From: Octopus vulgaris
Taxonomy: Eukaryota
DNA length: 64,000 nucleotides
Direction: 5' to 3'
Assembly (NCBI GenBank): GCA_951406725.2
Contig: OX597825.1
Location: 40,424,001 to 40,488,000 of the forward strand
The notes below the pieces were generated by a model, which worked only from the letters and a program-made list of their open reading frames with translations, had not been told where the DNA came from and ran no database searches. Position 1 is the first letter of the stretch. Every line of letters begins with the position of its first letter. Both the position numbers and the translations under genes were made by a program. Of this stretch, positions 24,944 through 27,900 are shown in pieces.

Positions 24944-27900
24944 ATTAACAATTAAGGAACGGCCATAATAGGCCATTCACCCACTAGAAATAACAGCCAA
25001 AGCTTCTACCGCAAATAAAGATTAATTCCGTAAACAGGAGAAAATTAAAAAAACATTTACCCTGTTATTTCTTGTACGGTATACCGTTTCATCTGCTGTT
25101 TAATGGTAAACTAACCTGATTAAATTAAATCAAGCCAATCTTCCATAAGCCCTCAGATTCTTCAGCAAGAAATAGCTCAAGTCGGAACAGATATTTACAC
25201 GAGGCATACCCAATCCTGCCAAGGCAATATCTGACCTAAAATTTTCAAATCGTCGCACTCGCGCCAAATTTATCGGCAGCAAATAAATCGTCGATTCCAT
25301 TACGGAATTAACCAAAAAATTCATAATTAATCAATATAGGGTGGCAAGGAAAATTTTGTAGAATTTTTTTGCCACCAGCGGCCCAGTGGGAAAAAATTAA
25401 ATAGTCATAGACCATTTTTAAGTTCAACATTAACAATTAAGGAACGGCCATAATAGGCCATTCACCCACTAGAAATAACAGCCAAAGCTTCTACCGCAAA
25501 TAAAGATTAATTCCGTAAACAGGAGAAAATTAAAAAAACATTTACCCTGTTATTTCTTGTACGGTATACCGTTTCATCTGCTGTTTAATGGTAAACTAAC
25601 CTGATTAAATTAAATCAAGCCAATCTTCCATAAGCCCTCAGATTCTTCAGCAAGAAATAGCTCAAGTCGGAACAGATATTTACACGAGGCATACCCAATC
25701 CTGCCAAGGCAATATCTGACTTAAAATTTTCAAATCGTCGCACTCGCGCCAAATTTATCGGCAGCAAATAAATCGTCGATTCCATTACGGAATTAACCAA
25801 AAAATTCATAATTAATCAATATAGGGTGGCAAGGAAAATTTTGTAGAATTTTTTTGCCACCAGCGGCCCAGTGGGAAAAAATTAAATAGTCATAGACCAT
25901 TTTTAAGTTCAACATTAACAATTAAGGAACGGCCATAATAGGCCATTCACCCACTAGAAATAACAGCCAAAGCTTCTACCGCAAATAAAGATTAATTCCG
26001 TAAACAGGAGAAAATTAAAAAAACATTTACCCTGTTATTTCTTGTACGGTATACCGTTTCATCTGCTGTTTAATGGTAAACTAACCTGATTAAATTAAAT
26101 CAAGCCAATCTTCCATAAGCCCTCAGATTCTTCAGCAAGAAATAGCTCAAGTCGGAACAGATATTTACACGAGGCATACCCAATCCTGCCAAGGCAATAT
26201 CTGACCTAAAATTTTCAAATCGTCGCACTCGCGCCAAATTTATCGGCAGCAAATAAATCGTCGATTCCATTACGGAATTAACCAAAAAATTCATAATTAA
26301 TCAATATAGGGTGGCAAGGAAAATTTTGTAGAATTTTTTTGCCACCAGCGGCCCAGTGGGAAAAAATTAAATAGTCATAGACCATTTTTAAGTTCAACAT
26401 TAACAATTAAGGAACGGCCATAATAGGCCATTCACCCACTAGAAATAACAGCCAAAGCTTCTACCGCAAATAAAGATTAATTCCGTAAACAGGAGAAAAT
26501 TAAAAAAACATTTACCCTGTTATTTCTTGTACGGTATACCGTTTCATCTGCTGTTTAATGGTAAACTAACCTGATTAAATTAAATCAAGCCAATCTTCCA
26601 TAAGCCCTCAGATTCTTCAGCAAGAAATAGCTCAAGTCGGAACAGATATTTACACGAGGCATACCCAATCCTGCCAAGGCAATATATGACCTAAAATTTT
26701 CAAATCGTCGCACTCGCGCCAAATTTATCGGCAGCAAATAAAACGTCGATTCCATTACGGAATTAACCAAAAAAATCATAATTAATCAATATAGGGTGGC
26801 AAGGAAAATTTTGTAGAATTTTTTTGCCACCAGCGGCCAGTGGGAAAAAATTAAATAGTCATAGACCATTTTTAAGTTCAAATTAACAATTAAGGAACGG
26901 CCATAATAGGCCATTCACCCACTAGAAATAACAGCCAAAGATTCTACCGCAAATAAAGATTAATTCCGTAAACAGGAGAAAATTAAAAAAACATTTACCC
27001 TGTTATTTCTTGTACGGTATACCGTTTCATCTGCTGTTTAATGGTAAACTAACCTGATTAAATTAAATCAAGCCAATCTTCCATAAGCCCTCAGATTCTT
27101 CAGCAAGAAATAGCTCAAGTCGGAACAGATATTTACACGAGGCATACCCAATCCTGCCAAGGCAATATCTGACCTAAAATTTTCAAATCGTCGCACTCGC
27201 GCCAAATTTATCGGCAGCAAATAATCGTCAGATATTGCCTTGGCAGGATTGGGTATGCCTCGTGTAAATATCTGTTCCGACTTGAGCTATTTCTTGCTGA
27301 AGAATCTGAGGGCTTATGGAAGATTGGCTTGATTTAATTTAATCAGGTTAGTTTACCATTAAACAGCAGATGAAACGGTATACCGTACAAGAAATAACAG
27401 GGTAAATGTTTTTTTAATTTTCTCCTGTTTACGGAATTAATCTTTATTTGCGGTAGAAGCTTTGGCTGTTATTTCTAGTGGGTGAATGGCCTATTATGGC
27501 CGTTCCTTAATTGTTAATGTTGAACTTAAAAATGGTCTATGACTATTTAATTTTTTCCCACTGGGGCTGGTGGCAAAAAAATTCTACAAAATTTTCCTTG
27601 CCACCCTATATTGATTAATTATGAATTTTTTGGTTAATTCCGTAATGGAATCGACGATTTATTTGCTGCCGATAAATTTGGCGCGAGTGCGACGATTTGA
27701 AAATTTTAGGTCAGATATTGCCTTGGCAGGATTGGGTATGCCTCGTGTAAATATCTGTTCCGACTTGAGCTATTTCTTGCTGAAGAATCTGAGGGCTTAT
27801 GGAAGATTGGCTTGATTTAATTTAATCAGGTTAGTTTACCATTAAACAGCAGATGAAACGGTATACCGTACAAGAAATAACAGGGTAAATGTTTTTTTAT

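Follow-up and report, generated by a model that had tools for sequence, protein, structure and literature searches.

The closest described systems are the metazoan non-LTR retrozymes and the Penelope-like elements (PLEs). For retrozymes, circRNA templates and PLE drivers have been proposed (Cervera and de la Pena 2020, PMC7229834), and a recent account treats them as PLE derivatives (Li et al., bioRxiv 10.64898/2026.07.22.740005). Their mobilisation in animals has so far been argued from co-occurrence and pLTR similarity. PLEs are found as inverted, 5'-truncated copies, often with a tail at one end only and with a bias towards (TA)n, and non-autonomous Chlamys elements such as MRC1 form multicopy head-to-tail insertions (PMC8557442). 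Head-to-head PLE palindromes have been explained by self-priming (PMC3846280), while the available text of PMC8557442 calls the origin of tandem, inverted and one-end-tailed insertions unresolved. The PLE protein of Poseidon, from Anolis, cuts and extends both target strands at AT-rich DNA; in vitro, reverse transcription (RT) begins at two internal positions, which form the borders of the tail, and a dimer is predicted (Frangieh et al. 2024, PMC11167929). In the experiments reported there the RNA used was uncut, the ribozyme was dispensable and start sites were equal between strands. Both twin priming and dual priming have been described for L1 (PMC2837659).

The window analysed here, a stretch of 64,000 nucleotides from Octopus vulgaris, lies on contig 12 of an assembly of 2.8 Gb in 227 contigs. 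TRF and sequence comparison reveal a 485-bp tandem unit in two opposite arms, both bordered by (TA)n tracts. The left tract (24831..24943; TRF 24831-24945, 57.5 copies) is followed by the left arm (24944..27229, minus strand), which holds 4.72 retrozyme units, starts 5' at unit position 429 and ends 3' at unit position 292 (site A), where TGTTAAT passes into atat at 24944. The right arm (27227..32020, plus strand) holds 9.82 units, from unit position 1 to unit position 398 (site B), and its final AATTAT passes into atat at 32020 and so into the right tract (32021..32070; TRF 32018-32070). The two 5' ends are joined head-to-head by a GTC microhomology common to both arms (27227..27229). A 53-bp unpaired spacer belonging to the left arm (27174..27226, minus strand, approximately unit 432-485) has no mirrored counterpart where the right arm begins, and a perfect inverted stem of 232 bp extends outward from 27173/27227. 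The stretch of 106 nt from site A (31914) to site B (32020) forms a 'tail' that is confined to the right arm, at its outer end (31915..32020, plus strand). The first-pass annotation had placed the end of the left arm at 27229, with a 3-nt microhomology, the 53-bp spacer and outer ends that merge into the microsatellite at different unit positions; all of this is confirmed (292 vs 398 for the outer ends). The array is genuine: a retrozyme that inserted recently and bears the tail characteristic of PLEs. To its right, two (TA)n tracts enclose a brief stretch of non-repetitive sequence (32071-32124), which could represent the end of a further, truncated element inserted in that target.

The reference unit (29681..30165, plus strand; 485 nt, the majority sequence of the array) has a GC content of ~0.36. 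Neither an ORF of 120 aa or more nor an ORF combining RT and GIY-YIG was found in the array, and the element is non-autonomous. The predicted fold of the unit RNA is far stronger than that of shuffled sequences (z = -6.84). Sequence, motif positions, covariation and fold all indicate a type I hammerhead at 29742..29850 on the plus strand. It consists of stem I (29742-50/29842-50), CUGAAGA (29751-57), a long stem II, GAAA (29826-29) and a palindromic stem III, and cleavage is predicted after GUA at 29841 (unit 161). The hammerhead thus occupies unit 62-170 on the plus strand of the right arm, and the ribozyme sense assigned earlier was correct. The core is invariant in 62/62 loci except at the free position N7, with A or C at H17, and GAAA is altered in one of 65 (one A change). 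Double changes occur at pairs 80-143, 81-142, 82-141 and 70-162 in 3, 3, 10 and 14 loci, respectively, among related loci whose events are not independent; pair 62-170 is mismatched in most loci. Imposing the hammerhead on the circular fold costs 1.4 kcal/mol relative to the minimum-energy structure. This proximity to the minimum, together with conservation through double changes, suggests that cutting matters. An Rfam search of the unit gave no match at gathering level and no ribozyme match at E<=10, probably because of the long insert in stem II. Two matches to snR83 (E 8.9) were attributed to chance, and HDV-like readings made by eye were dropped once the hammerhead had been fitted.

Because of its type I hammerhead fold with covarying stems, the unit fits a non-LTR retrozyme, for which self-cleavage and circles would be predicted. 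With the described metazoan retrozymes (PMC7229834; 10.64898/2026.07.22.740005) it has in common a short, tandem, non-coding unit with one type I hammerhead per unit, a GC content below 50%, a strong fold, dispersed copies and PLEs in the same genome. It differs in the long stem II insert, and no pLTR homology to the sampled autonomous PLEs was found. The available text of those descriptions mentions neither inverted insertions nor fixed paired ends, (TA)n targets or a tail.

Eighty loci of the family were compared. These are the window copy and 39 others from a DNA search (40 scored of 1339 candidates), 20 of the 27 new loci given by an A-end pattern (46 matches), and the first 20 of at least 655 matches to a B-end pattern. 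The DNA-search set is biased to long, young arrays, and the pattern sets fix one end by design. Loci L068 and L069 have flanks in common and represent one event; L084 and L107 were excluded from the end counts for internal rearrangement. A search with the odd arm of L088 gave no new subfamily. The 3' ends fall almost entirely (129/134) into two windows 106 nt apart, A at unit 282-297 (mode 292) and B at unit 391-402 (mode 398), both AU-rich stretches that are mostly unpaired in the predicted fold. Fifty-eight of the loci are inverted, every one head-to-head, and none has arms tail-to-tail within 50 nt. Their ends are reciprocal: 53/58 have one arm at A and the other at B, none has A+A or B+B, and five have one off-site end. 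In the set not chosen by end pattern the count is 25/28. The remaining 22 loci have a single arm, and in four of these the opposite side carries a 13-15-nt stub of site B. Arm ends join the target with 2-3 nt of AT homology, and (TA)5 lies within 30 nt of 133/138 arm ends, against 110/1560 random flank positions; in the 40 loci not chosen by end pattern the figure is 68/68.

The first-pass annotation had looked to other family loci for inversions, (TA)n targets and circularly permuted ends. The first two are borne out (58/80 loci, 133/138 ends against a background of 110/1560). Permuted ends are not what is found, since the 3' ends keep to two fixed windows with one site per arm. It had also taken fixed ends without TA targeting as a sign against its reading. 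The ends are indeed fixed, but TA targeting is present, and the fixed ends sharpen twin priming rather than refute it.

The same pairing is seen elsewhere in the genome. A second retrozyme family, V, is represented in the window by a single arm of 3.1 copies of a 360-nt unit between (TA)n tracts (51807..52930, plus strand), with a hammerhead motif at 52359-52392 (core CCGAUGA, GUC cut). A first look at the genome gave 739 candidates, and 21 loci were sampled (20 of 40 scored and the window copy). The paired end sites are 44 nt apart. Seventeen of these loci are inverted, all head-to-head, and 15/17 are reciprocal; the other two have same-site ends, each into a different microsatellite. In PLE-1, an autonomous Penelope-like family, copies end in (TA)n at two sites ~40 nt apart (17 loci). 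Thirty of its 104 tailed ends were examined, 14 of which have an inverted arm, with the far end in view in 11. Ten of these far ends lie at the untailed site, one stops 32 nt short of it and none lies at the tailed site. Two further loci are both reciprocal, bringing the total to 12/13. The rule of one site per arm therefore holds in three families of this genome, and PLE-2 also has two end classes.

This two-site end pattern is the known PLE 'tail'. The likeness to the inverted pLTRs of PLEs drawn in the first-pass annotation extends across the sample, in which 58/80 loci are head-to-head and 53/58 carry the tail at one end. As in the published insertions (PMC3846280; PMC8557442), there is a head-to-head inverted copy, a one-end tail and a microsatellite or AT-rich target. 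Here, however, both arms are multi-unit and non-coding, and the tail measures 106 nt as opposed to 30-40. The same papers ascribe inversion to self-priming and the tail to endonuclease resolution. The comparison with Poseidon is also close in that two fixed sites bound the tail and both strands of an AT-rich target would have been primed. In the available text of PMC11167929, though, no pairing of strand with start site is reported, no inverted product is modelled and the template is linear; priming there is non-homologous, in contrast to the 2-3 nt of AT homology at the ends described here.

The resemblance to L1 is partial. Shared with its twin and dual priming are the apparent priming of both strands, the outward 3' ends and the junction microhomology (overlaps of 1-11 nt in 28/50). 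Unlike L1 insertions, these loci have no poly(A), the second site is fixed (129/134 ends at two sites) and the inverted form is the majority outcome (58/80). In addition, the arms copy overlapping template rather than adjoining parts of it. Abutting arms of the L1 type were looked for and not found: in 20/100 cases the 5' end maps between -30 and +60 nt relative to the 3' site of the partner arm, against ~19 expected if positions were uniform. A target site duplication, as in L1, would have no visible limits between two (TA)n flanks. The L1 geometry proposed earlier thus stands as regards priming from both strands and does not extend to poly(A), a variable second site or abutting arms.

Together, reciprocal ends (53/58) and non-nested arms (15/50, described below) support the earlier suggestion that both cut strands of the (TA)n target were primed, and priming of the two strands at paired sites is held with high confidence. 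An assembly artefact from fold-back chimeric long reads scarcely comes into consideration. No independent contig across the window junction is present among the bridging pieces listed, and the junction-adjacent units carry more variants than the rest of the window array, both of which an artefact would accommodate. A fold-back read, however, would mirror the flank and the end site, whereas 58/80 loci are head-to-head with reciprocal ends and junctions of their own (one duplicated pair excepted). Moreover, head-to-head joints of the family also occur in the contigs of three other public runs, one of them in all three runs; at least 21 such joints are counted, at other positions, in runs whose library types are not on record.

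In part of the sample at least, the arms of a pair appear to have been copied independently. The counts of 122 arms and 50 pairs leave out eight loci that are duplicate, gapped, rearranged or off-site. Fifteen of the 50 pairs are not nested, 11 of them by more than 15 nt, where random pairing predicts 12.9; in family V this applies to 5/17 pairs. Fold-back copying cannot extend beyond the arm made first, so in these 15 pairs, in which each arm has sequence absent from its partner, each must have been copied from the template independently. This bears directly on the published alternative, in which a cDNA hairpin copies back on itself (self-priming, PMC3846280) and an endonuclease trims the far end at the tail (PMC8557442). 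It would account for six loci with near-perfect palindromic centres (slack 0-3 nt) and for the proximity of the two 5' ends, which are <=30 nt apart in 16/50 loci against 7.7 by permutation (p = 0.0017). The latter is also consistent with annealing of cDNA ends at local hairpins. At the window locus, turning back over the 53-bp spacer would yield a copy of the 4.7-unit arm, but the arm opposite is 9.8 units long; in addition, the five variants in the left unit nearest the junction have no counterpart on the right. As a general rule fold-back is refuted by the non-nested loci and is very improbable, and it may account for a minority of palindromic centres. Junctions as a whole show overlaps of 1-11 nt in 28/50, blunt joints in three and inserts in 19, often copies of nearby sequence. 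One of these, a 145-nt insert in L079 (823-967), consists of an A-rich unit of 7-9 nt, repeated ~20 times, which matches the template U-run; the insert could possibly reflect telomerase-like reiteration by the RT.

Even so, paired arms are nearly identical, with 10 differences in 13,924 positions across 42 loci; in 18/42 no other locus is equally close. Of the variants private to a locus, 19 occur in both arms and 8 in a single arm. Near-identity and common private variants indicate that one template sequence served both arms. Two RNAs of one source locus, or later gene conversion, could produce the same identity, and dual priming, in which each target strand uses its own RNA (circular or not) from one source locus, has been put forward for L1 (PMC2837659). 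Paired arms routinely span the same template region, which is simpler with two RNAs and no displacement of cDNA. Their lengths are uncorrelated within sampling sets, an overall correlation (rho 0.33) disappearing at that level. Two free RNAs, on the other hand, give no cause for the strict A/B reciprocity, and arms of two haplotypes are found in 0/42 loci although many haplotypes exist. Dual priming is accordingly considered improbable, if less so than fold-back, and paired-site priming on a common RNA is preferred.

Whether that RNA was a circle or a linear multimer is the less settled part of this reading. Most arms (92/122) cross the ribozyme cut, 53 of them twice or more and one as often as 14 times, and only 5/80 loci carry an indel at unit 157-166 over 268 passes. 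Within loci, 114 of 123 variants are singletons, and L047, L034, L039, L036 and L052 are uniform across 4-11 units. The alternative is that paired-site priming took place on a multimeric RNA transcribed from a genomic array, linear and in part uncut, with no circle involved. It would be in keeping with an excess of arm 5' ends just 3' of the cut, at unit 162-200 (31/122 against 10.7 expected, three-fold), which fits run-off from linear templates with ribozyme-cut 5' ends and persists in later rounds (17/68 against 5.9). The same zone contains stem I and a U-run with stutter inserts (L079, L082), and family V has no comparable pile-up (6/38 against 4.0). Precedent for the linear template comes from Poseidon, which used uncut RNA in vitro and for which multi-copy mRNA is proposed (PMC11167929), and from Xenopus, in which 8/9 retrozyme dimers were uncleaved in vitro (bioRxiv 10.64898/2026.07.22.740005).

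Variants common to several units are found in L057, L064 and the window, which shows that some long arrays are not simply a single monomer copied in one pass. One variant in L064 (2597-7495) is present in every second unit along a stretch of nine, a pattern expected of either a dimeric circle or a duplicated dimer, and another is common to some units of both arms, as a multimeric transcript would allow. Unit-specific variants common to paired arms are, however, restricted to L064 and L100. In the window, the right arm carries a T-run insertion in unit 2 (27892..27914, plus strand, 16 nt extra) and again in unit 5 (29363..29384, plus strand, 15 nt extra); the arms of the other loci lack this insertion, a hint of subsequent duplication within the array. 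A trimeric circle as its source was rejected because right-arm unit R8 and left-arm units L1-L5 are without the insertion. The ~5 and ~10 rounds of copying envisaged earlier can therefore not be taken literally, as an insertion common to two units means that unit number is not a count of rounds.

Against the linear multimer stands the hammerhead itself, conserved with double changes and within 1.4 kcal/mol of the circular minimum. Each locus is also internally uniform, while loci differ by up to ~12%, so that repeated monomer bottlenecks would be needed. An uncut linear multimer is thus unlikely without being negligible. The circular template suggested in the first-pass annotation remains likely in view of the arms that cross the cut, and, given paired-site priming, a rolled circle is regarded as fairly probable.

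On balance, the array is best explained, with moderate confidence, by one insertion into (TA)n in which a PLE-type RT-endonuclease primed both cut strands, one per site, on the same, probably circular, RNA. Judging from the fold, the covariation and the retrozymes of other animals, the hammerhead would cleave the transcripts, and these would circularise at 485 nt. A probably dimeric PLE protein would bind the region between sites A and B and nick both strands of the palindromic (TA)n, leaving the two fixed ends and the TA target that are seen. One 3'-OH would then start at A and the other at B, using the 2-3 nt of AT homology, as the reciprocal ends suggest; the in vitro data for Poseidon suggest that RT starts at these points. 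Both RTs would copy the same template region, presumably moving around the circle by strand displacement, and would terminate at differing positions, consistent with the overlap and the variable 5' ends. The two cDNA ends would finally be joined head-to-head via microhomology or short inserts, as in the junction classes observed, and long arrays may grow afterwards by local duplication. A more specific version, a double rolling circle in which a PLE dimer clamps one circular RNA at two sites and two RTs displace each other's cDNA, is offered tentatively and is rather doubtful.

The components of this reading are known already from the literature available, in which the paired-site rule was not found; the rule and the synthesis are what appears to be new. 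The literature search, in which older Penelope work is thinly covered, found no statement of one start site per strand, retrozymes included. Taken together, the rule in three families and the non-nested arms speak for paired priming and against self-priming as published, and the insertion signature ties retrozymes to PLE chemistry. From the rule follows a precise prediction that can be put to the PLE system already established in vitro, and two open questions become directly testable. If the template was circular, each of these arrays preserves in the genome a trace of rolling-circle reverse transcription carried out by an RT related to telomerase. If the double rolling circle is true, one mechanism would serve for the PLE tail, inverted pLTRs and retrozyme tandem arrays.

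A search for possible drivers, by a Pfam GIY-YIG scan and one protein search, led to two young PLE families. PLE-1 (L161 2481-7272 and L150-L165) is a young autonomous element with an intact 781-codon RT/GIY-YIG frame, a 479-codon frame upstream without a Pfam match, and a 40-nt tail. A minimal hammerhead-like motif with a U3-A8 core, recognised by eye, lies near its 3' end, and the 5' end of the L161 copy adjoins the motif. PLE-2 (L170-L199) is likewise young, with frames of up to 775 codons that are 43-47% identical to PLE-1, and its copies end in (TA)n at two sites ~40 nt apart. The unit did not match the ends of PLE-1, PLE-2 or the other GIY-YIG loci fetched, which sample part of the genome's PLE families. 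An 18-nt antisense match of the unit inside the PLE-1 ORF (E 0.18-0.56) was put down to chance. A match of family V to L166 was considered as that PLE's own end and is read instead as a neighbouring V-like insertion. A third family, related to V (69-79% identical), is present at L166 7080-7317, L197 3504-3780 and L160 2284-2316, and has its own hammerhead-like motif and ends in (TA)n.

A few further observations concern the surroundings of these arrays. In L057, a second, older copy of the family (9404-9986) adjoins a 17-unit array in the same (TA)n tract. In the window, weak tblastn matches to the PLE-1 protein at 47552-47659 (plus strand, E 6e-4) and 38156-38302 (minus strand, E 1e-3) are possibly old PLE fragments. 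Frames on the minus strand at 39635-41344, matching DUF7047, RVT_3 and an integrase core and located in a GC-rich stretch of ~38-44 kb, are remains of an LTR-type retroelement.
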